This document shows, piece after piece, positions 7,525 to 51,227 of a stretch of DNA of 64,000 nt. Under the pieces are notes generated by a model. That model was given only the letters and a program-made list of their open reading frames with translations. It was not told the DNA's origin and made no database searches. The position numbers and the translations under genes were made by a program. Numbering within the stretch: position 1 is the first letter of the stretch; each line of letters starts with the position of its first letter. Where the stretch lies: positions 8,047 to 72,046 of the IMG/VR virus record IMGVR_UViG_3300021960_000054. One strand, written 5' to 3'. This stretch comes from a virus.

Positions 7525-8065
7525 TCGCATTGGATATACGGGTTCTCCTGGTTCATGGGTGGGGGGAAATCAATATGAAGTCTACAAATCAGATACGATT
7601 ATTAACAATCAAGAACTTCTAATAGAACATCTACTAGAATTTCATCATAATACAGAGTATAGAACAAGTAATTTTGATACTTATAATATATTCACAGAAT
7701 GGACTACCGATACAATGTATGATTTGTTTACAAATGTTAAAGATGTGGTTCGCACTCATTTACCAAAGGGAAGACTTTGGTTACAAGCATGGGTAAATGT
7801 ACACAAACAGAATGAGTGTCTAGATTGGCATCATCATCATTTCCCTTTTCATGGATACATATCAATCGATCCAAAGAATACAACTACAGAGTTTGCAAAA
7901 TGGAAAGTAAAGAATAGCGTAGGAAATATATATTTTGGACACGGCGGAAAAGCAAACGAGCATAAGGTTACAGTTAATGAACCATACGATGACTATCGCA
8001 TTACAATAGGATTCGATGTGCAGTCGGTTGCAACTCAAGGAAGAAATAAATTTATACCGATATGA
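7517..8065 (+). CDS. 2OG-Fe(II) oxygenase-like protein
   Basis: AWVNVH...LDWHHH...HGYISI...EHKV...RITIGFD. Confidence 0.7.
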   Translation: MINRIGYTGSPGSWVGGNQYEVYKSDTIINNQELLIEHLLEFHHNTEYRTSNFDTYNIFTEWTTDTMYDLFTNVKDVVRTHLPKGRLWLQAWVNVHKQNECLDWHHHHFPFHGYISIDPKNTTTEFAKWKVKNSVGNIYFGHGGKANEHKVTVNEPYDDYRITIGFDVQSVATQGRNKFIPI

Positions 8066-14473: not shown

Positions 14474-15055
14474 ATGAAAGAAGTAAACATACAACATGCG
14501 TTTGCAGACTTCTTCGTGCATGAAGAAATTTTTATTAACAATGACGATATCTGTAAATTCATCTACAAGCAAAAAGAAAAGAGTGAAGGTCCTAGTATCT
14601 GGTTTGATGGAACAGAACCTGAACTGGCACAGTTCTATGGTGTTGTGCAAACATATCTAGATGCAATGCATACTAAGTTATCTTTGTATCCTAAACTAAA
14701 GCAAAGACTATTTCAAGCATGGGCAAACATCAATATGAATGAATTTATTTCTGTTCCTCATAGTCACAGTGAAAGAGCATATGCAGTTATCTCTGGAGTA
14801 TATTATCCAAAGGCAGATGAGAACTGTCATCCAATTGAGTTTGCATCTAACAATCGTTCAGTTGAGCATGTGATTTTTCCTGAGGTTGTAGATAAAGAGA
14901 ATGAATTCAATTGCGGTCACAAACGCATTGTACCTAAGACCGGAACTCTTTTGTTATTTCCTTCTTGGTTAATACACTATGTTGTACCGGCGGGTACTGC
15001 AACAGAAGATAGAATTTCATTAGCATTCAATGCTGACATGGTACCTAAAGATTGA
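14474..15055 (+). CDS. 2OG-Fe(II) oxygenase (TIGR02466-like)
   Basis: AWANIN...HSH...ISGVYY...LFPSWLIHYV...RISLAFN. Confidence 0.88.
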   Translation: MKEVNIQHAFADFFVHEEIFINNDDICKFIYKQKEKSEGPSIWFDGTEPELAQFYGVVQTYLDAMHTKLSLYPKLKQRLFQAWANINMNEFISVPHSHSERAYAVISGVYYPKADENCHPIEFASNNRSVEHVIFPEVVDKENEFNCGHKRIVPKTGTLLLFPSWLIHYVVPAGTATEDRISLAFNADMVPKD

Positions 15056-18833: not shown

Positions 18834-19187
18834 ATGTCTACTGCATTAGTCAAAGTAGAAAAACATCCAATCACAAATTATCTAGGACCGCAGTTCGTAC
18901 TTGTCGATGAGAAAATTGTATTCGATACGCGAGAAGCAGTCAAGACACATCTACCTGAAATCTGCGGTAGAGTGTTAGCAAGAGCATGGATAGACAAAGC
19001 ATTCTATGCACAACTAGAAAAGAACACACTAGAAACATTCAATACTCTAGGTGTATACTTACCTTCTGATATGTTTATCGAATTCAAGAAAGGTAAGACA
19101 AGAGCATCTATCATCGTCTACGAACAAACAGGAAGATTAAAAGTCCGCGTCTGTTCTTTAGAGATGACGTTAATAGCAAGAAGATAG
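18834..19187 (+). CDS. Protein with nitrile hydratase alpha / NHLP-leader-like segment
   Basis: GRVLARAWIDKAFYAQLEKNTLETFNTLGVYLP. Confidence 0.55.
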   Translation: MSTALVKVEKHPITNYLGPQFVLVDEKIVFDTREAVKTHLPEICGRVLARAWIDKAFYAQLEKNTLETFNTLGVYLPSDMFIEFKKGKTRASIIVYEQTGRLKVRVCSLEMTLIARR

Positions 19188-19206
19188 AACTAAGAAAGCA
19201 GAACAA

Positions 19207-19617
19207 ATGAAACAACATCCCAGAGCAAATCTAACAGGCGGTTATGTAAAAGCAGGATACGAGAATGTAAAGATAAGTGAAGTGAAAGATTACTTTCTCA
19301 TTCATGGTAAGAACAATTCTAATCCTGATGTATACAGAAGTCTTGCAGAAGTGGAACAGTATATCAACAGTCTTACTTCAGAGAAACATAAGTCACGCAT
19401 AGTGATTGTGCCTTTCTCTGTTAGTGAAGAAACTTTCGACAGAGAGATATATGATATTATACACTTTGTATATGATAGATTACAACCTGAAGAATACACT
19501 AAGTGGAAGATGGGTGAATCCTCAATCTTACATTGGGGTATTATTCAACGCTATAAAGAACGCTATTACAGTGACAGAGAAGAAGCACTGAACCGCCGTG
19601 CGATGCGCCGACTTTAA
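19207..19617 (+). CDS. Hypothetical protein
   Basis: Last gene of the plus-strand block. Confidence 0.6.
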   Translation: MKQHPRANLTGGYVKAGYENVKISEVKDYFLIHGKNNSNPDVYRSLAEVEQYINSLTSEKHKSRIVIVPFSVSEETFDREIYDIIHFVYDRLQPEEYTKWKMGESSILHWGIIQRYKERYYSDREEALNRRAMRRL

Positions 19618-19798
19618 AAACGTAATTTTTACTCCGGAAAAATTTTTGGAAACAGCATAGGGGGTAGTGCGTTTTCAGTTTTCGTGCAGTCGAATGTTTG
19701 CCGTACTCTGAGTCCGTTGGAACGTGCCGGCGCTAAGAGCGAGACTTAACCCCTCCGCACTCACAAAAATATTGCATATGTAGGGGGGTGTACCCTTC

Positions 19799-19827
19799 AG
19801 TATATCACAGTGAGTAACAGTTGTCAA
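19799..19827 (-). promoter_or_regulatory. sigma70-type promoter firing into non-coding DNA
   Basis: TTGACA-N17-TATACT with TGn extension and an upstream T tract. Confidence 0.7.
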
Positions 19828-19844
19828 GTAAAAAATAAAAAAAA

Positions 19845-19889
19845 GCGACACCCTACAACCCTTTGTCAGTAAGGGTTACAGGGCATCGC
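19845..19889 (-). terminator. Long rho-independent terminator
   Basis: Minus strand GCGATGCCCTGTAACCCTT-ACTGACA-AAGGGTTGTAGGGTGTCGC (19 bp including G-U pairs), then a T run. Confidence 0.8.
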
Positions 19890-19933
19890 CGAGACAACGT
19901 AGGGAGAAAGGGAGAGAAAAACCCTACTAGTCT

Positions 19934-20182
19934 CTAACTTGCAGTCGCGTCTACTCGTTCTACGCCACACAGTTTGTAACCGGTGACCTTGCGACCGTCT
20001 TTGAGTGGGATCACACCATAGGGTGTCTTTGTTTTAATTTCCCACATATACGTTGAGATGCGGTACATGTTCACGCCTGCTATCTCACACTGTTGTTTGA
20101 ACTCATCTATAGTAGCAGTATAGTTATCTGCTTCTTTCAGTACGTTCAGTACTTTTTCATATTGACCCATTGCTTTTGCCAT
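19934..20182 (-). CDS. Winged-helix-like small DNA-binding protein
   Basis: YEKVLNVL...MYRISTYMWEIK...KDGRKVTGYKL. Confidence 0.6.
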   Translation of the reverse strand: MAKAMGQYEKVLNVLKEADNYTATIDEFKQQCEIAGVNMYRISTYMWEIKTKTPYGVIPLKDGRKVTGYKLCGVERVDATAS

Positions 20183-20185
20183 TAT

Positions 20186-20368
20186 CTACTCCTTATCATA
20201 TGTAACGAATGCTACACCAATCATTGCGAAACCTGCTAATGCGAACAGCAGTACTTCAGTGAGTGACAGTGCGTTCTCCATACACTTGCCATCACAGTCG
20301 CTACCTACAGCGCCTAGTACTAATAGAAATCCGGTGATGCCTAATGCACCCGCGATTATATTACGCAT
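20186..20368 (-). CDS. Two-TM membrane protein
   Basis: Two hydrophobic segments; GAGG RBS. Confidence 0.65.
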   Translation of the reverse strand: MRNIIAGALGITGFLLVLGAVGSDCDGKCMENALSLTEVLLFALAGFAMIGVAFVTYDKE

Positions 20369-20501
20369 ACTGACGTACCTCTACTAAGTTCATTGCGTTA
20401 ACACCAAATGTGCCGTCTGCGAGAATAGCATCACACTGCTCTTCTGTCAGCGCGGTAACTATCTGCGTTTCACCATTCAATTTAAATTCAATTTCAAACA
20501 T
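20361..20501 (-). CDS. Small hypothetical protein
   Basis: Manually translated MFEIEFKLNGETQIVTALTEEQCDAILADGTFGVNAMNLVEVRQYA; follows the promoter at 20533-20561. Confidence 0.55.
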   Translation of the reverse strand: MFEIEFKLNGETQIVTALTEEQCDAILADGTFGVNAMNLVEVRQYA

Positions 20502-20532
20502 ATTCACTCACTTTCATTCTCATTATATACAC

Positions 20533-20561
20533 AGTATATCACAGTCTTATACAGATGTCAA
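20533..20561 (-). promoter_or_regulatory. Early sigma70-type promoter
   Basis: TTGACA-N17-TATACT with TGn. Confidence 0.75.
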
Positions 20562-20569
20562 GCACTAAT

Positions 20570-20770
20570 TTACACTTTTGCCATATAATATTCATTCCAC
20601 GCATCGTCACACACACTGGTAATGATATCACCAGGGATGAAATCAGGTAACTGATTGTCAACAATACTATAGAACTCATTAATCGTCTGACACTCACTAA
20701 CCATAGTCTCAGTTATAACGTCATAGACACGCTCTTCGCAGTCCATTGCCCATGCTTTTACAGCACCCAT
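20570..20770 (-). CDS. Small acidic protein (MGAVKAWAMD...)
   Basis: AAAGG RBS before ATG at 20770. Confidence 0.65.
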   Translation of the reverse strand: MGAVKAWAMDCEERVYDVITETMVSECQTINEFYSIVDNQLPDFIPGDIITSVCDDAWNEYYMAKV

Positions 20771-20793
20771 AATAGAACCTTTCTGTAAGTAGA

Positions 20794-20874
20794 GAGACAT
20801 GCAGTTAAATCTAGCATCGCGCCAGTTGTGTCGGTGACACATGCAGTTAAATCTAGCGATGTTCCAGTTGTCTC
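20794..20874 (-). ncRNA. Putative structured leader RNA made of two 39-nt repeats (period 42) with complementary loops
   Basis: ACATGCAGTTAAATCTAGC repeated exactly; differences between the copies preserve pairing. Confidence 0.6.
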
Positions 20875-20901
20875 GTTATCGTTAATCTTTATCATGTATA
20901 C

Positions 20902-20930
20902 ATTATAGCAAAGACAATGGCAATTGTCAA
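20902..20930 (-). promoter_or_regulatory. Consensus sigma70 promoter
   Basis: TTGACA-N17-TATAAT with TGn. Confidence 0.85.
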
Positions 20931-21270
20931 GCATTATTTTCACTTTTTTTCACTTTTTTTTAAAATAGTTGGTAAGTGTTGTATTTTTGCAACAGTGTAA
21001 GTTACTGTTTTTGTGTGGTTCTTTTCCCTTGACAACGGCGCTCGTATGTGCGAAAAAGCAACTTACTATTTCTAAACGTATTTAATACTGTTTATTCGCC
21101 CTTTTCGATAGTCACTGTATACACAACGATACACAAAACTATGCTAAACTTACCGATAATTCATGCTAATTCACAGTCTTTCACTCTATATGAATACTAT
21201 GTGAACTAGTTAAACAGTATGTGAATAAGACCGATATAAGGTAATGTTACTTCTATTGTTTGAGTGATTA

Positions 21271-21495
21271 TCATACCCATTCTACTTCTATACCAAAGAC
21301 TGGACTAGTTTCTTGCTTCTGTGTGATGTGATTGAACCCGCTATTGAAGTAAGTAGTCATATTGATTACTGTCTTATCTTTATAGTCTTCTTTCAGCATT
21401 GCGAAACATGCTTGTACTGCTTCGTTCTTCTTATCACCTGTGATTGGATGTGTCGTATAGTTTACGTCATTCATTGTGATTGTTTCTACAGTCAT
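21271..21495 (-). CDS. Hypothetical protein
   Basis: TAATG coupling with the upstream gene. Confidence 0.6.
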   Translation of the reverse strand: MTVETITMNDVNYTTHPITGDKKNEAVQACFAMLKEDYKDKTVINMTTYFNSGFNHITQKQETSPVFGIEVEWV

Positions 21496-21656
21496 TATTT
21501 TACCTTCTTATACATTGTTGCGATTTTCATGATTGTGTATGCGAGAAGTGATATTATCGTTGCCGCGCTTTCATTGAATACATCATACATTACGAATGCG
21601 AGTGAAAGCGCAACGATGAGTGGTATTGCTTCTTGCTGTATGTCTTCTCTGTTCAT
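21495..21656 (-). CDS. Small two-TM protein
   Basis: MNREDIQQEAIPLIVALSLAFVMY...; ATGA overlap with the HNH gene. Confidence 0.55.
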   Translation of the reverse strand: MNREDIQQEAIPLIVALSLAFVMYDVFNESAATIISLLAYTIMKIATMYKKVK

Positions 21657-22072
21657 GCGACTTTCTTTATGAATACATGAGGTAACGATAAGTAGTCTCG
21701 ATTGTCTCTCGTCTTTAGACGATGACAGCAAGCGCACAGTGTTTGCAGATTGCTCTCTTCATTGTTGTCGTGATTACCATCAATGTGGTCGACTTCTAAC
21801 TGCCATTCAGGATCAATGATTGTTGTTGTGCATTTACCGTGACCTAGACGATTATCGATGTTTTCACAATACGTCTTGCGATGCTGTTTGTATACCCAAC
21901 CACCAATGGCGTAATTCATAGCGTGATGCTTGGTGCAGACGTAACCCTCTTCAACACCGAATTCTTCACGAACCCATGTTGATTTGCGCCATTTTGGATT
22001 AGCAGTTGTGCTTGTATTTTGTGCGTTTTTACCGCAATTGGGAACTTGACATTTGGGACGATTGGTAACCAT
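21653..22072 (-). CDS. HNH endonuclease with Cys-rich N-terminus
   Basis: LEVDHIDGNHDNNEESNLQTLCACCHRLKT. Confidence 0.88.
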   Translation of the reverse strand: MVTNRPKCQVPNCGKNAQNTSTTANPKWRKSTWVREEFGVEEGYVCTKHHAMNYAIGGWVYKQHRKTYCENIDNRLGHGKCTTTIIDPEWQLEVDHIDGNHDNNEESNLQTLCACCHRLKTRDNRDYLSLPHVFIKKVA

Positions 22073-22108
22073 TTGAAACCTCTCTATTACAATTCATCTT
22101 ACTTATAT

Positions 22109-22137
22109 AATATAACAGAACTTTACATAAATGTCAA
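22109..22137 (-). promoter_or_regulatory. Early sigma70-type promoter
   Basis: TTGACA-N17-TATATT followed by GTAAGATG. Confidence 0.75.
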
Positions 22138-22220
22138 GTAAAAAGAAGCATAAAAATCATAATAATTGCGAAACAAATGGATATGACTATAAGCATCCAT
22201 AAGTATTCGAACTCATTCAT
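22134..22220 (-). CDS. 28-aa single-TM peptide
   Basis: MNEFEYLWMLIVISICFAIIMIFMLLFT; ATGA overlap with the upstream gene. Confidence 0.45.
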   Translation of the reverse strand: MNEFEYLWMLIVISICFAIIMIFMLLFT

Positions 22221-22429
22221 TGCTCTTGTGATTGCTCTTCTGCTTGATGTTTCCAGTGCTTTATGAACTCGTATGACCCATCTCGCATCTTTTGAATGTG
22301 TACATAACCGTGTTCTTCTAATGTCTCTGTATAACGCTCTAATGCGTCTTTAGTAGATTGCCATTTACCGAAACGCCATGCGCTGAAAAGCATTGCTGTT
22401 GCTAATATTGTGTGAATATACGGGTCCAT
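22217..22429 (-). CDS. Small membrane-anchored protein
   Basis: AAGGAG RBS; late promoter TATAAATA at 22449-22456. Confidence 0.65.
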   Translation of the reverse strand: MDPYIHTILATAMLFSAWRFGKWQSTKDALERYTETLEEHGYVHIQKMRDGSYEFIKHWKHQAEEQSQEQ

Positions 22430-22447
22430 AAATTCTCCTTATTGGTA

Positions 22448-22987
22448 TTATTTATATTTTACTACTATATTCATTACAAGTCGCCTAGAAGCATCTACCG
22501 GACTGCTAGAAGCATGATTAAGAAGACTACTGAAGTGTATTGCATTATTCATTGTAGGTGGTATTTCGAAATTCTCACCTGTCTCAGGAAAGAAGAACGT
22601 ATTACCGTCTGCCGCGTTGATATAGTATAGAATGCTATGAAACTTGTCTGCATCAGGCGCATCTGTATTAACATCGGTGTGCATTGCATGAAATGGTAAT
22701 GCTGAAGTTGCTCTTATTCGCGGAAACAGCATATTTACCTTCGCACGGATTACCTCACAATCAGGAATGTCAAGTGCAGTGAGTATTGCATCTACCCACT
22801 TGACGCCTGGTTGATACATAAGACTATTGCCGGATTGAATAACTCTTGTAAATTGTGGACTATCATCACCAATGTAGTCATCTACAGTATTCTCTGAATA
22901 TGACCAAAGAAAATCGGTGCGAGATACCGCTTCAAGTATCTCGCTATGTAATGCTTCACTGAGTACATTATCAAAAGTTTTAAACAT
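22448..22987 (-). CDS. 2OG-Fe(II) oxygenase-like protein
   Basis: IRAKVN...HTD...ILYYINAADGNT...HASSSP...RLVMNI. Confidence 0.8.
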   Translation of the reverse strand: MFKTFDNVLSEALHSEILEAVSRTDFLWSYSENTVDDYIGDDSPQFTRVIQSGNSLMYQPGVKWVDAILTALDIPDCEVIRAKVNMLFPRIRATSALPFHAMHTDVNTDAPDADKFHSILYYINAADGNTFFFPETGENFEIPPTMNNAIHFSSLLNHASSSPVDASRRLVMNIVVKYK

Positions 22988-22989
22988 TA

Positions 22990-23193
22990 CTACACCGTTG
23001 GGTCTGGATTGTTTTTCGCGTCTTGTACTGCTTTGCGCTGATTAGCACACCATTTAGCAAGTTCAGACATCTTTTTTCTTGCTCTTGTACCTGCAGACTT
23101 ATTACCTTTTTCGTGAAATGTCTGTAGTTCTAATTTAGTCTCTCTTACGAGGTCATCTAGTTCAAATACTGCATCTTGCCAGTCATTACTCAT
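22990..23193 (-). CDS. Histone H1-like (Hc1-family) small DNA-binding protein
   Basis: EKGNKSAGTRARKKMSELAK motif. Confidence 0.7.
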   Translation of the reverse strand: MSNDWQDAVFELDDLVRETKLELQTFHEKGNKSAGTRARKKMSELAKWCANQRKAVQDAKNNPDPTV

Positions 23194-23653
23194 CTTCATC
23201 ATCCTTTTTAGTAAATTGATTAGGTTGTACATCAGTCAGTAGCGTTGGAAATGCTTTGCGTACAATCTCTCTTGTGATGTTTGGATACATCTCTTCCAAC
23301 TTTTTATCTTTAGCGGCGCACACTAAATCTGCTTCAGTATAGTGAATACCTTCTAAGATTTGCACGAAAACCATCTCTTTTTTCATGCGAGGTAGTGGGT
23401 CTGTCTTGGCGCATCTTGCCAAGCGTCTACTCTCAGTATATAATGAGGCGCTAGAAAGACCAATCGGTTCTCTAGGGTCTCTTTTAAACGGTGGCGCCCC
23501 TTCGGGCAGGTCTAGTTCGATGTTCTTATCAAACGCTAGTGCTAAAACTGTTCTTAGCGGTCGTAGGTTGTATGATTGTAACAGTCGAATACGCTCTGCT
23601 TTGGTTTGAGCATCATTTACTTCTGTCAAAATTTCTGGAATATTTCTTCTCAT
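23186..23653 (-). CDS. Conserved T4-like hypothetical protein
   Basis: LPEGAPPF...EMVFVQILEGIHYTEA; late promoter TATAAATA at 23691-23698. Confidence 0.7.
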   Translation of the reverse strand: MRRNIPEILTEVNDAQTKAERIRLLQSYNLRPLRTVLALAFDKNIELDLPEGAPPFKRDPREPIGLSSASLYTESRRLARCAKTDPLPRMKKEMVFVQILEGIHYTEADLVCAAKDKKLEEMYPNITREIVRKAFPTLLTDVQPNQFTKKDDEDE

Positions 23654-47151: not shown

Positions 47152-47420
47152 CTTTGTTCCCATATCTTGATTACAAGATTTCCTTTACCTTTTATAATTC
47201 TATGATATTCCATCTCTGGAATTTTATAAATTTTTCCTTTTTCTAGTTTTTTAGCAATTTTGTTGTCTAACTGTAACAACCAATCTTCGCCTTCTAGAAT
47301 AGTTATCTCTCTATAGTATTTATCCCTATGCCAAACCAAAGTATCAGGATCAACATCCTCATCAAATGTTCGTATATCATCTACTTGTTTGTAGGGTTTA
47401 CCAGAAATAGTTCCCGCCAC
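47148..47420 (-). CDS. Cupin-like protein
   Basis: LVWHRD...IPEMEYHRIIKG; start uncertain. Confidence 0.65.
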   Translation of the reverse strand: MAGTISGKPYKQVDDIRTFDEDVDPDTLVWHRDKYYREITILEGEDWLLQLDNKIAKKLEKGKIYKIPEMEYHRIIKGKGNLVIKIWEQR

Positions 47421-49989
47421 CAGATAGTCCTAACTGCTTCGCATAGTAAGGCATACGGCATGCCCAATATCCAGGTTTAGTTTTATCTTTCTTTGTGCTA
47501 CACTGATGTCTTGCGGCGAATGACTTTCTCGCTTCAGGATCATTCAGTTTTATTTTCAGACCGGTGGTGTCACCCCACGAAACTTTTTTAATGTTTCCAC
47601 TTGATGGGTCTTTTACATATACATAATACTTTTTAGGTCCACCCGCTTTAGGTTTGTTTAACTCAGGTTGCTCTTCTTCCATCATAGGACAATCAAGAGG
47701 CACATGTTGTCCTTCATATAATGCATGTGAACCAATGTCGGATTCAAGCAACTCAATGTCGAAACTATCTAAGAGGTCTCGGTTAAGGGTTTTCTTCCAC
47801 TCATTAAATTGCTCATAGTACATCTCAGAACCAATGCGATATTCATTAGTCTCAATCAACTGTGAGATTGGTTCATAACTTTCTTTTTTAGATTTCATTG
47901 CTTGAAGGCGCTTCATTTCTAATTTACGCATAGTTGGAAGTAAACGAATAGACAATCTATCAATAACTTTCTTCTTACTCGCAATGAACTTTTCAATTTG
48001 TTGCTTTTGCGCCATACCTAATGTGCTATATGGTTTACCTTTAGTAAATCTCTTACGCAACTTATTTCTTGCATGTCGCCTTGCTCTCTTCTTTAACTTT
48101 TCAGGAGAAGACATACGCTTCAATGCAATCATTCGTTTACGTTGAATACGCTTAGACATTCGGCGCATCATCATTGACCGTTTCATACGTTGCGCTGGTG
48201 TTAATACTTCATCCATATTAATCCACTGATAGTCAGCGGCAAGCATTTCGTCATCATCAGGAATCTCATTAGAGTCCACATCAACGCCATCATCTTCATC
48301 TTGGTCATTGGGAATTCCATCACCATCTTTATCTGGATATACATCTGCAAAATCTTCGATTTCGTCATAAGCATCGAATAAATCTGCGATTTGCTTTTCT
48401 AAACTCTCATCATCAACTTCATCAGGATCAGGAATATCAAGTTCTTTATCTTCATCACTCTCTTCTAAAAATAAGTCAATGTTCCACTCTTCGCGCAACT
48501 CATCTTCTTCGTAGTGAGATAAACGACTATCATGCTCAGTAACATCTTTCGCCATTGTGCGATACCACAATTTAATTTGCGGGTCTAATAGTCTCTTACC
48601 AACAGTAAATTTTCTAGCATCTCTGAACATCTTTTGAAGACGCTGTTGAACTTCTTGCTTGTTTGAACCAGCAACTAGCATCTTACCGACACCTTCAACT
48701 TCGACTTCAAAAGCAACTTCTGCTTGCTCTGTAAGACCTAAGTGTTCTTTGAATGATTTGCGGGTTTTCTCTACTTCTTTAGATACTTTATCTAAGACTT
48801 CTTTTGCATTCTTCCCATCAATACCTAAAATAGGTGCTTCACCATCGCCCAAAATCCAGTCTCCTGATGGGTCGTCTGGTGTTGTTCCTTGGACTGCTCC
48901 GCCTTGTTCTGGATAGTCTGCAATTGCTGGTACTGTTTTATGTGATGCTTCGCCGAACATCGCTTTGAACTTCTTAGTGTGCGTTGAAGGTTTTGTCTTT
49001 GCTGTCGCATCTCCAGGTGCTGGTTTGTAAGCACTTGGGTCGTCATCTGATTTTTCTGCGCCCTTCTTGAAATGTGCATCTCTGGTAGATTTGGTAGACT
49101 TGGACTTGAGTCCTGCAAAGTATTTTGCTGGTTGTGTACCGTCTTTATCGGCGATATCTTTATCTTGTCTAACTTCGGTGTCATCGTCTTTCGCTGATTT
49201 CTTTTCTGTAAGGTCGGATATCCACTTTGTATGTACATTACCATCTGCTCCTTTGCAGTACAGGAAGTTTGTTCCTTGTTCTACGATTTCAAATTCTTCA
49301 TTTAAATTTAAGTCTACTACAATATCACCAACATTAAAAATGTCGCCTACTAGATATGCTTCTCTGAATGCAATACGCTCAAATTCCACATCTTCTTTAA
49401 TTGAAAATACTTTACGAATTTCGTTATAAATTGCTTTCTTGTCTGCATCAGATAGTTTAGATGCTAATGCACCAGCAAACTTCTTATAGTTACCTTGCTT
49501 CGCATAGTCGCGCAATAGAGTACCAGAGATACCCTCAACACCTTTTGCATTAGGGTCGCGCTTGCCTGCAGACTTTGATGAGATGGAATTAAAGTTAAAT
49601 TCTTTTCCGTTGTATTTTTTGATGAGATTGACCATCTCACCTTCGCGGTCGTCACCAAATACTAATGTGATATCTGTATAACCGTCCGCTTCTAATTCTT
49701 TTGCAATCTCAATGATTGTTCTTGCTCTAGATGATTTAACTGCAGAACCAAATGCCTTCTTTGCATACTTGACTTTATCTTTGTATGACAGAGGGTCTTT
49801 CTTATTGTTCTGAGTATGTGATAGATAAATTCGTGCGTCTGCACCAGATGCTTTCGCTTCTTTTGTTACTGCATTCGCGAGTTTTTCATGTCCTGCTGTA
49901 GGAGGATTCATGCGACCAAAAGAAAATACAACTTTCTTTTCTTTTGCTTCCTTCAGTTTTTGCTGAAGGTCTGTAAACTTTAATGTCAT
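47398..49989 (-). CDS. Multi-domain protein with N-terminal HIGH-type nucleotidyltransferase (cytidyltransferase/NMNAT-like)
   Basis: FSFGRMNPPTAGH and ISGTLLR motifs; further basic and acidic modules. Confidence 0.8.
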   Translation of the reverse strand: MTLKFTDLQQKLKEAKEKKVVFSFGRMNPPTAGHEKLANAVTKEAKASGADARIYLSHTQNNKKDPLSYKDKVKYAKKAFGSAVKSSRARTIIEIAKELEADGYTDITLVFGDDREGEMVNLIKKYNGKEFNFNSISSKSAGKRDPNAKGVEGISGTLLRDYAKQGNYKKFAGALASKLSDADKKAIYNEIRKVFSIKEDVEFERIAFREAYLVGDIFNVGDIVVDLNLNEEFEIVEQGTNFLYCKGADGNVHTKWISDLTEKKSAKDDDTEVRQDKDIADKDGTQPAKYFAGLKSKSTKSTRDAHFKKGAEKSDDDPSAYKPAPGDATAKTKPSTHTKKFKAMFGEASHKTVPAIADYPEQGGAVQGTTPDDPSGDWILGDGEAPILGIDGKNAKEVLDKVSKEVEKTRKSFKEHLGLTEQAEVAFEVEVEGVGKMLVAGSNKQEVQQRLQKMFRDARKFTVGKRLLDPQIKLWYRTMAKDVTEHDSRLSHYEEDELREEWNIDLFLEESDEDKELDIPDPDEVDDESLEKQIADLFDAYDEIEDFADVYPDKDGDGIPNDQDEDDGVDVDSNEIPDDDEMLAADYQWINMDEVLTPAQRMKRSMMMRRMSKRIQRKRMIALKRMSSPEKLKKRARRHARNKLRKRFTKGKPYSTLGMAQKQQIEKFIASKKKVIDRLSIRLLPTMRKLEMKRLQAMKSKKESYEPISQLIETNEYRIGSEMYYEQFNEWKKTLNRDLLDSFDIELLESDIGSHALYEGQHVPLDCPMMEEEQPELNKPKAGGPKKYYVYVKDPSSGNIKKVSWGDTTGLKIKLNDPEARKSFAARHQCSTKKDKTKPGYWACRMPYYAKQLGLSGGGNYFW

Positions 49990-51227
49990 TTTTTCACCCA
50001 ATTTTTTGCGGCAGTGAAGTTAGCACGACTGAACTCTAAACGGTTCACTAGTTTAACTGCATTACCTTTAATTCTGTCAACTGCCACAAAACCTTCTGGT
50101 TCGGTGGTCTTTAGTCCATTATCTGTTCTCAGAAAAGTACCGATTGATTTTACTTTCGATAGTTTCTGCACCAATACATTTTTAGCGTCCATTATATAAG
50201 TGTATAACAAAGTTGCGTTTTGCAAGTCTTTCTCTTGCTGATGAATTTTTTTCAATCCTTCAAGTTTAATCTCATTATATTTTTGTTTACCTGCATCAGA
50301 CTTCACACTTTCAATCTTCTTGTCTAACTTAGTAGTCCAATAGTTCTTAAAGTCAGAGACCATTTGATTACTATCAGGCAAGTCATCTGCACCCCTAAAA
50401 TAAGAGTTTAGATGAACTTTAAAATTAGTTTCGATAGCAAATTGGTTCTTCTCATCAAAGTTCGCAGACATCTTATCCAAGTAGGATGAGACATTAGGTA
50501 GCAAACTTTCAATCCGTTCGATATAACCATTGAGATTTTCGGTTTCATCTTTAGTCATTGTGACTGTGCCTGAAACATCTTTATATGAGGCATCATCGAA
50601 CCAGACCGTCTTCTGCTTTCTCAACTTACTTATATTTATATTAAACGATGCTTTCATCGTTTCTAGTGTCTTACCTTTATATTCTGTATGAAAGATAATA
50701 CCCATCTTTGTACTTTGTACGAACTTACCAAGAGGTCCACTCTTAGGAATAGCATAGACAATAGTGTTAGGTTGAAACGTGATATAATCTTCACCATCAA
50801 TAGTCTTAGTTGACAAATCAGATTTAGTGTACATCATGTCACCTTGAATGACACCTTTGATACCTAACTTAGATAGTTCTTTTAATGCAACTTCTAATTT
50901 CTCTACTAGTCCACCTGTGTGGTTTTTCTTAATATCTGCAGATGTGTAGTTTAGTTTAGGGTTTTTATTAAAGACTGATTTAGTAGCAACAAAGAACTTA
51001 CCATTCTCAGGATTAACACCACAGAAAATAGCAGGTGCGCCATCCCACTTTGTGGTGATGTTAACACCGGTGCGAACACTTGAACTAAGCATGTCACGAA
51101 CACCTTTAAGGAATTCGACTGCGTTCTTTGCGCCATCGGCACCGTCTGTGATAATAGTTTCCTCAATATGCGTCAAGTGCGTATTGCGGTTCTCAGTTAA
51201 CTCTGTATGTGCTTTAAATCTAATCAT
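49986..51227 (-). CDS. Ligase-superfamily (KxDG) nucleotidyltransferase-like protein
   Basis: NTHLTHIEE; TTKWDGAP, ATKS, QGDMMY, EGFV, VKLV motifs. Confidence 0.65.
   Translation of the reverse strand: MIRFKAHTELTENRNTHLTHIEETIITDGADGAKNAVEFLKGVRDMLSSSVRTGVNITTKWDGAPAIFCGVNPENGKFFVATKSVFNKNPKLNYTSADIKKNHTGGLVEKLEVALKELSKLGIKGVIQGDMMYTKSDLSTKTIDGEDYITFQPNTIVYAIPKSGPLGKFVQSTKMGIIFHTEYKGKTLETMKASFNINISKLRKQKTVWFDDASYKDVSGTVTMTKDETENLNGYIERIESLLPNVSSYLDKMSANFDEKNQFAIETNFKVHLNSYFRGADDLPDSNQMVSDFKNYWTTKLDKKIESVKSDAGKQKYNEIKLEGLKKIHQQEKDLQNATLLYTYIMDAKNVLVQKLSKVKSIGTFLRTDNGLKTTEPEGFVAVDRIKGNAVKLVNRLEFSRANFTAAKNWVKK

Follow-up and report, generated by a model that had tools for sequence, protein, structure and literature searches.

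What does an RNA made of two similar, mutually complementary units do at the head of an early phage transcript, and is it a structured RNA at all? The question is raised by a locus in a 64,000-nt stretch of viral DNA (positions 8,047 to 72,046 of IMG/VR record IMGVR_UViG_3300021960_000054), which is referred to here as the window. On its minus strand, an 81-nt element lies between a consensus early promoter and p66, a small open reading frame (ORF) for a 66-aa protein. The element is, with high confidence, a real conserved structured RNA. Its function can be proposed only tentatively, and several alternatives have to be weighed against the reading that is preferred below.

The element and its parts

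The element is a tandem duplication in which two 40-nt copies with 83% identity follow each other at a period of 42 nt. An earlier note, made from the sequence of the window, had described a promoter followed by an outer stem (GAGACA/UGUCUC), a central hairpin (UGUGUC-ACC-GACACA) and two complementary loops (CAUCG/CGAUG). All of these parts are present on the minus strand at the positions it gave. The three pairings are named P1, P3 and P2, respectively, and the parts of the element are as follows.

20794–20874, minus strand: whole element, 81 nt, two 42-nt units, pseudo-two-fold symmetric (repeat analysis; covariance model R1, 113.8 bits)
20869–20874, minus strand: 5' strand of P1, GAGACA, partner 20794–20799; double changes in 3 of 6 pairs, 98.5% of cells pair
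20794–20799, minus strand: 3' strand of P1, UGUCUC, partner of the P1 5' strand
20857–20861, minus strand: 5' strand of P2, CAUCG, in the variable 7-mer of unit 1, partner 20815–20819; double changes in 4 of 5 pairs, 100% of cells pair
20815–20819, minus strand: 3' strand of P2, CGAUG, in the variable 7-mer of unit 2, partner of the P2 5' strand
20827–20841, minus strand: central hairpin P3, UGUGUC, loop ACC, GACACA; double changes in 3 of 6 pairs, 98.5% of cells pair
20842–20856, minus strand: invariant CUAG + AUUUAACUGCA of unit 1 (conservation count in relatives)
20800–20814, minus strand: invariant CUAG + AUUUAACUGCA of unit 2 (conservation count in relatives)
20864–20868, minus strand: invariant ACUGG of unit 1, whose CUGG is able to pair with either CUAG via G-U
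20822–20826, minus strand: invariant ACUGG of unit 2 (conservation count in relatives)

The variable 7-mer loops, AACAUCG and CGCGAUG in the window, differ among relatives. An 18-nt word common to both units occurs only twice in the 64 kb at up to 3 mismatches, against 0.17 occurrences expected, and 1 of 100 shuffles reaches two. The 72-kb record holds only one strong match to R1, and no second copy was found in it.

Two further sequence features were observed. The hexamer YAACTG occurs four times at an exact spacing of 21 nt within 20802–20870 (minus strand), which gives each 42-nt unit an inner half-period; across the window, it is found 92 times against 83.7 expected, so it is not enriched. 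In addition, the invariant CTAG..(A)TTTAACTGCA word has near-copies at 50048–50061 (plus strand), 49727–49744 (plus strand) and 14782–14796 (minus strand). They are on the strand opposite to the local genes, and those mRNAs are consequently complementary to both loops.

Relatives and covariation

A protein-guided scan of metagenome contigs gave 18 loci. The element is present in 12 of them (L009–L013, L015, L016 and L018–L022). Two (L017, L023) are cut off ahead of the leader, three (L014, L024, L025) carry p66 homologues without the element, and L026 is not a true homologue. IMG/VR scans with looser two-unit patterns added one further variant in three virome contigs (L030–L032; 83.8 bits with R1), besides which they returned only one chance match, in a coding region (L029). 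R1 gives 15 strong matches (81–117 bits) across the window and the 12 metagenome loci. The set used for covariation comprises 12 sequences, 11 of them distinct, from about seven lineages.

Among these 12 sequences, double-sided changes occur in 10 of the 17 pairs of P1, P2 and P3 and one-sided changes in none, and 98.9% of cells pair. In a control in which the partners were slid by 1–3 columns, pairing amounted to 21–46%. Five measures were compared with 500 shuffles. For four of them, no shuffle attained the observed value; for the remaining one, further pair types, 296 did, so that it does not discriminate. The full 25-pair model gives the same picture as the 17-pair count. For P1, the variants of GAGACA/UGUCUC are GAGAUA/UAUCUC, GAGACU/AGUCUC and AGACU/AGUCU. 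For P3, UGUGUC/GACACA is replaced by AGUGUC/GACACU, UGUCAC/GUGACA or UGUCCC/GGGACA, and for P2, CAUCG/CGAUG by CAACG/CGUUG or UAUCG/CGAUA. In L019 and L009a, the two strands of P2 are exchanged between the units. It is through such compensatory changes that the outer stem, the central hairpin and the loop complementarity, all of them pointed out in the earlier note, are kept in the relatives.

Other parts of the element behave in the opposite way. ACUGG is identical in 24 of 24 units (10 of 10 positions in all 11 other sequences), including a fixed G-U although an A would pair equally well. CUAG followed by AUUUAACUGCA, counted over both units, agrees with the window at 30 of 30 positions in eight of the 11 other sequences and at 29 and 28 of 30 in two more; the exception is L016, with 24 of 36 positions and an insertion. 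The invariance of the linker that had been claimed extends to 10 of the 12 sequences. Helix positions, by comparison, differ from the window at 2–12 of 34 in 10 of the 11 other sequences. Spacing also changes: the second linker is 6 nt longer in L016, and one linker is 1 nt shorter in L032 and in L009a. Since the CUGG/CUAG stems never vary, covariation is silent on them, for or against. P1, P2 and P3 thus drift in sequence with their pairing kept, and between them they carry an invariant module (A-CUGG opposite CUAG-AUUUAACUGCA) twice, in a pseudo-two-fold arrangement.

Searches beyond these relatives were negative within their scope. Exact-word IMG/VR scans for the 18-mer and for the strict unit gave no match, as did GenBank phage nucleotide and protein searches with the leader and p66. 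Scanning 185,579 species genomes with a unit pattern of 20 specified bases gave one chance match, in Neobacillus, and no match to the model, and a 20-kb megablast returned only short unrelated patches (80–82%). A weak R1 match at L107 1501–1583 (19.6 bits) was rejected as a chance look-alike of P3 and ACUGG (GGTGTC-GCT-GACAC-TACTGG) inside a HAD-type gene of a related phage. The element was not found in L111, where the best R1 match with filters off scored 10.4 bits.

Fold and topology

Thermodynamically, the fold does not stand out: the minimum free energy (MFE) of the leader is -22.2 kcal/mol (z = +1.11), a value that 176 of 200 shuffles equal or better. Support for the fold comes from comparison, not from energy. 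RNAalifold recovers P1, P2 and P3 independently and arranges them in a rod. The rod consists of P1, an internal loop with A opposite AUUUAACUGCA, a 13-bp helix (CUGG/CUAG, P2, CUAG/CUGG) with two 2-nt bulges, the same internal loop inverted, and P3. In this arrangement, the CUGG of one unit pairs with the CUAG of the other.

The earlier note had drawn the RNA as a four-way junction locked by kissing loops. One part of this drawing is borne out, as the complementarity of the two 7-mers covaries. However, P2 is nested between P1 and P3, so that neither a kiss nor a four-way junction is required, and RNAalifold therefore gives the rod. Alternatively, CUGG and CUAG may pair locally within each unit, giving hairpins on a four-way junction that a kiss of 5–6 bp connects; this is one of the two topologies that the data allow. 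Because the rod and the junction share the same invariant letters, covariation cannot separate them. The calculated energies are -16.8 kcal/mol for the rod, -14.7 kcal/mol for the four-way junction without the kiss and -19.5 kcal/mol for the single-sequence MFE structure, which has another pairing (UGCA:UGCA); these energies do not decide between the topologies. Both drawings build each recognition module from two units, taking the 5' part of one and the 3' part of its partner. On the opposite strand, the G-U of CUGG/CUAG would become an A-C mismatch, which, on the evidence of the invariant letters alone, fits the direction of the promoter.

Genomic context and cassette exchange

The source record is a 72-kb virus with an estimated completeness of about 40% (CheckV), found in estuary and marine samples. 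Its gp43-type DNA polymerase has 54% identity to cyanomyovirus polymerases and matches 2684 phage records, and the record additionally codes for ribonucleotide reductase, a DnaB-like helicase and four tRNAs. On these grounds, the phage is an uncultured T4-like myovirus of marine and estuarine waters. The element belongs to an early transcription unit with the following features.

20902–20930, minus strand: early sigma-70-type promoter, -35 TTGACA (20930–20925), 17-nt spacer with TG, -10 TATAAT (20907–20902); 12 of 12 consensus positions
near A20895, minus strand: putative transcription start
20875–20895, minus strand: A/U- and purine-rich 5' stretch of about 21 nt from the start site to P1, unpaired in the predicted folds
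20778–20784, minus strand: Shine-Dalgarno (SD)-like AGAAAGG, which begins 10 nt past the end of P1 and ends 8 nt ahead of the AUG
20570–20770, minus strand: p66 ORF, 66 aa, acidic early protein, fast-evolving, predicted four-helix fold
20533–20561, minus strand: next early promoter, TTGACA-17-TATACT, 11 of 12 consensus positions, directly after p66; cassette boundary, identical in L032
19844–19890, minus strand: strong intrinsic terminator with a 20-bp stem and a T run, end of the unit after p48, p60 and p82

The promoter was correctly described as perfect, and it is conserved: its type (TTGACA/TTGACT, 17 nt, TATAAT/TATAGT/TATACT) is found upstream of the element in all relatives with upstream sequence. 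P1 begins about 22 nt past the putative start site, and the element ends 23 nt ahead of the AUG; the 5' stretch between the start site and P1 is 14–23 nt long in relatives. Three small ORFs follow the second promoter ahead of the terminator, namely p48, p60 (membrane-like) and p82.

Contigs from four metatranscriptome runs belonging to three studies cover 19816–20941. Two of them span the element as a whole, one of 403 nt at 20539–20941 and one of 147 nt at 20776–20922. Two contigs from different studies, 283 and 270 nt long, have their ends at 20866 and 20867, within unit 1 and just past the P1 5' strand. Contigs cannot show RNA ends, and these stops were not used as evidence. The same applies to 21008–21071 upstream of the promoter, over which no contig of the four runs lies.

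The protein p66 is as acidic as the earlier note had it, with a pI of 4.05 and 13 D+E against 3 K+R residues. It matches no Pfam or PHROG family. Its AlphaFold2 (AF2) model reaches a predicted local distance difference test (pLDDT) score of 86.4, and Foldseek returned nothing for it at E<=0.001. Homologues are 31–91% identical (alignment A2), and a search with the family profile gave 35 clusters, all unnamed and without Pfam domains. Wherever the element is found, a p66 homologue follows it (12 of 12 metagenome and 3 of 3 virome loci carrying the element).

A comparison of L032 with the window indicates how the two travel. The flanks are near-identical (the promoter, the next promoter, p48 at 98%, p60 at 97% and p82 at 100%). 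Between the promoters, the element is altered in all three helices and p66 is 41% identical. This swap between near-identical promoters implies that element and gene move as one cassette. Promoter-bounded cassettes, known as PeSLs, have been reported from the hyperplastic regions of T4-like phages, and L032 shows the same pattern (PMC4122927). Two further loci, L009 (1170–1500) and L010 (360–690), contain two tandem copies of promoter and element. The upstream copy lies about 170 nt further up and has no ORF of its own. It differs from the window at 12 of 34 helix positions with pairing kept, and its helices have diverged from those of the downstream copy.

Conversely, p66 homologues further removed from that of the window can lack the element, as in five loci: L014 (65% identical), L111, L003/L024 and L004/L025. 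In L111, L003/L024 and L004/L025, the leaders are short and plain, or there is none. It follows that the element family is confined to part of one phage clade. In L014, a 23-codon hydrophobic ORF (MIKNIIIMMLLTTAMLALFSAMI; 1270–1356) runs from the putative transcription start in the place of the element.

The remaining proteins of the unit offer few leads. None of p48, p60 and p82 matches a Pfam family, and the four operon proteins gave no Pfam or PADLOC family at E<=0.1 beyond chance-level matches, with no ToxN-like or defence protein in the operon. Atlas gives no score above 0.84 for p48; for p82, the named clusters closest to it are MarR_2 and FUR. Their score of 0.86 falls short of what the tool itself treats as trustworthy, and they serve as a lead only. 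No family match was found for p82, its AF2 model is weak (pLDDT 67.6), and Foldseek returned nothing at E<=0.001. All 16 loci with this last gene of the unit (19934–20182, minus strand) keep it at 81–100% identity, measured over the residues that align (the full 82 or the first 73), whereas its neighbours diverge to 41–64% identity.

Two observations concern the DNA further upstream. The intergenic DNA ahead of the promoter (window 20931–21100, minus strand; L009 1020–1180; L014; L032 200–350; L111 1620–1700) is conserved, even in relatives without the element, and reads GGC(G/A)AATAAAC..., then ...GAACCGCCGT..GTCAAGGG..., followed by A-rich tracts. It may be a PeSL-like, recombination-prone promoter/terminator block of T4-like hyperplastic regions or some other non-coding element. 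The 80-aa phage protein encoded at 22990–23232 (minus strand) has a Pfam match to Hc1, a chlamydial family of histone H1-like proteins (PF07432, E 2.8e-14).

Proposed mechanism

The preferred reading, which is held tentatively and as one possibility among several, is that the element is a bivalent leader RNA bound by a dimeric factor and tuning the downstream fast-evolving early gene p66. The two identical modules would serve as recognition surfaces, each read by one half of a dimeric protein, which either the phage or the host might supply. By binding the leader, whose base lies 23 nt ahead of the AUG and 10 nt ahead of the SD, this protein could tune the translation or the stability of the p66 mRNA. 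The effect would be to cap, limit or time, at the RNA level, the output of p66 from a promoter of consensus strength. Several groups of observations support this proposal, the covarying structure itself being the first. The invariance of ACUGG and the CUAG-linker against drifting helices argues for sequence-specific reading of the modules. A link in cis is supported by the constant presence of a p66 homologue behind the element and by the cassette swap in L032. The position of the element, directly after the start site and ending about 23 nt ahead of the AUG, points in the same direction, and the region is present in contigs of four metatranscriptome runs.

Several findings weigh against it. 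No partner protein was found among the four operon proteins with Pfam and PADLOC or, for p82, with the structural model and Foldseek, and p66 itself is an unlikely RNA binder because it is too acidic. The element overlaps neither the SD nor the AUG. The copy of promoter and element without an ORF in L009 and L010 argues that the RNA works whatever its distance to a ribosome-binding site, and the p66 homologues of L014, L111, L003/L024 and L004/L025 are without the element. Furthermore, the metatranscriptome contigs attest to presence in RNA libraries and are no proof of transcription, strand, ends or level.

Alternative explanations

The main rival reading is that the RNA acts in trans. The leader, or a piece processed from it, would then itself be the product, either a two-seed antisense RNA clamping two sites of a target mRNA or a decoy for a dimeric host protein, such as a defence nuclease. 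The element would in that case represent a new class of bivalent phage regulatory RNA, with a covarying, domain-swapped symmetric scaffold presenting two identical 15-nt loops. The seeds of small RNAs (sRNAs) share this signature of single-stranded loops that never vary on stems that covary, and both the free-standing copies in L009 and L010 and the p66 homologues that do without the element fit this idea. In mRNA sense, the window contains three strong complements of the loops, at 50048–50061 (-17.2 kcal/mol), 49727–49744 (-17.1 kcal/mol) and 14782–14796 (-18.0 kcal/mol). The first two lie on one mRNA at a distance of 317 nt, one on either side of the likely ATG (49989) of a nucleotidyltransferase-like gene (47398–50001). 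Extra loci at <=-17 kcal/mol number 3; in 24 order-2 Markov resamples, they averaged 0.46 and never exceeded 2. However, the energy excess is modest, with the best match in random resamples ranging from -15.1 to -19.9 kcal/mol, and all three sites lie within ORFs, two of them spelling A-V-K in frame. Nine relatives with about 75% identity have no downstream site, and four of them read CTTG for the CTAG of the upstream site, which amounts to synonymous drift; these contigs end ahead of the expected place of the element. R1 found no copy in five virome records with the 50-kb-type gene, whose contigs likewise stop too early for this result to count. The candidate targets do not account for the invariance of ACUGG, and no ToxN-like or other defence partner was found among the operon proteins. 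Action in trans, whether as mRNA clamp or by capture of a dimeric host defence protein, is judged unlikely, though worth keeping in view. If it did occur, an early-mRNA leader would double as a weapon or a timer whose dose is raised by duplication of promoter and element, as in L009 and L010, and the RNA would add a new type to the phage sRNAs or decoys.

A cis-acting element that needs no dedicated factor is an improbable explanation. It could be a 5' stabiliser against RNase, a translational enhancer or standby site with A/U-rich loops, an RNase III-type site or a put-like polymerase-modifying RNA. Its location 22 nt past the start site of each promoter carrying the element, both tandem promoters of L009 included, and its rod-like, largely double-stranded shape would suit such roles, and the contig ends at 20866 and 20867 in two studies could be a weak hint of an RNA end. 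On the other hand, 40 invariant nucleotides are more than a stabiliser or enhancer should require, and the long helix wanted by RNase III is interrupted here by 11-nt/1-nt loops. Read-through would not help either, because the sole terminator ends the operon ahead of a convergent gene block.

The two identical internal loops or junctions might instead be two pockets for a small ligand or ion that, once bound, changes what becomes of the mRNA. Aptamers classically show this signature in a 5' untranslated region, with helices that covary around junction nucleotides that do not change, and pseudo-symmetric aptamers with two sites are known (guanidine-II, tandem glycine). Yet no expression platform is apparent: there is no terminator-like site between the element and the ORF, and in the 12 leaders no SD-sequestering helix is common to all and no conserved helix covers the SD. 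Moreover, the distribution is very narrow (one phage clade, one gene family), and there is no Rfam match. A riboswitch-like sensor therefore has a low probability.

Acting at the level of DNA, the invariant words could be operators or iterons for a DNA-binding protein, with the pairing being incidental. The exact 21-bp spacing of the four YAACTG words and the 42-bp period of the units correspond to whole helical turns, and two further CTAG..TTTAACTGCA copies lie on the other strand near 50 kb. This explanation is very improbable, as it cannot account for 10 double compensatory changes over three helices. In addition, the spacing is not kept in L016, L032 and L009a, and YAACTG is not enriched in the window. 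Finally, a leaderless small ORF for a tandem-repeat peptide (MIKINDNETTGTSLDLTAC...), suggested by an ATG at the putative start site, a 42-nt period that is a multiple of 3, a frame open in the window and several unit differences that are conservative at the amino-acid level, was rejected because the relatives do not conserve any frame (in L032, each of the three element frames contains stops, L009a has a stop in the window's open frame, and L016 has no ATG and a frame-shifting indel) and the changes are compensatory at the RNA level.

Comparison with known systems

A permissive Rfam 15 cmscan of 19000–23000 (E up to 10) gave nothing on the element; its sole match was snoR53Y at 19294–19352, with 27.9 bits against a gathering score of 43. 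This agrees with the earlier statement that no known RNA family has this architecture. Full-text literature searches for the 11-nt loop word (as DNA, RNA and reverse complement) returned only unrelated primer lists, with supplementary motif lists outside their scope, and topical literature searches found no description of the motif. The element is thus apparently an undescribed structured RNA.

Several well-known RNAs share individual features with it. In type III toxin–antitoxin (TA) systems, a nuclease of the ToxN/AbiQ type, encoded next to the repeats behind a terminator, excises the essentially identical ToxI units singly; each unit folds on its own, and phage copies can act as decoys. ToxI and phage pseudo-ToxI are tandem direct repeats of about 34–45 nt transcribed from a strong promoter, with a copy number that can expand, and the two units with a period of 42 described here resemble them in this respect. 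Unlike in ToxI, the two units are 83% identical and differ in mutually complementary ways, the inter-unit helices P1, P2 and P3 covary, and behind the repeats there is neither a ToxN-like gene nor a terminator (no terminator-like site in 20794–20570). A ToxI-type array was rejected on these three grounds. RNA anti-CRISPRs consist of a solitary CRISPR repeat, and the element, with its 42-nt units and a longest shared word of 21 nt, looks unlike a repeat-spacer array.

The guanidine-II (mini-ykkC) riboswitch has two hairpins with variable stems and an invariant, ligand-binding kissing loop, ACGR. Both RNAs have two similar units in one leader that are joined by loop-loop pairing into a pseudo-two-fold arrangement with two sites. 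Here, however, the complementary 7-mers vary and covary and their flanks are invariant, ACGR loops are not present, and there is no SD sequestration. HK022 put is a cis-acting two-stem RNA located just past early promoters, and the thrS operator offers two similar leader domains to a homodimeric protein. The element shows no sequence or structural likeness to either; there are no internal terminators to overcome, and no tRNA-like features were found in it. The pRNA of phi29, likewise transcribed from an early phage promoter, also has two loops that stay complementary by covariation. Its loops pair from one molecule to the next and so build a ring on the packaging motor in small protein-primed phages. 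The differences are that pairing within one molecule is the simplest reading here and that the phage is T4-like.

Structured RNAs of phage early leaders are few and come mostly from model phages. The present one comes from an uncultured lineage and shows unusually clean covariation for a small sample. A tandem duplication whose halves pair together, so that two identical modules face outwards with two-fold symmetry, is a rare design in natural RNAs. At 81 nt, the element is small enough for direct structural and biochemical work, and its compensatory variants are ready-made controls.

The closest worked example is the Aca-bound hairpin in the 5' untranslated region of phage acr-aca operons (PMC13551039). 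There, the regulators Aca1 and Aca2 limit translation on the leaders of anti-CRISPR operons, the RNA being bound by a dimeric regulator. The Aca motifs (PMC13551039) and the element have in common a structured RNA directly past the start site of a strong early phage promoter, an end about 20 nt ahead of the start codon of a small gene, which is of anti-defence type in the Aca case, and covarying stem pairs beside conserved ones. Each Aca motif is one inverted repeat of about 20 nt and looks like the DNA operator of its regulator, a helix-turn-helix (HTH) or ribbon-helix-helix (RHH) protein encoded in the same operon (PMC13551039). In contrast, the element has 81 nt, three helices and two invariant 15-nt loops. 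Neither its words nor a related repeat were found in the promoter, where an Aca operator would be, and no HTH/RHH protein was detected in the operon by Pfam for p48, p60 and p82 or, for p82, by its weak AF2 model and Foldseek. For p66, an anti-defence role would be conjecture. If a dimeric protein does read the element, the recently recognised RNA-level capping of very strong phage early promoters would extend beyond anti-CRISPR operons and into T4-like phages. Set beside these systems, the element is of a kind already known, since phage early operons with structured leader RNAs have been described; what is new is the family, and what is unusual is its domain-swapped two-fold design.

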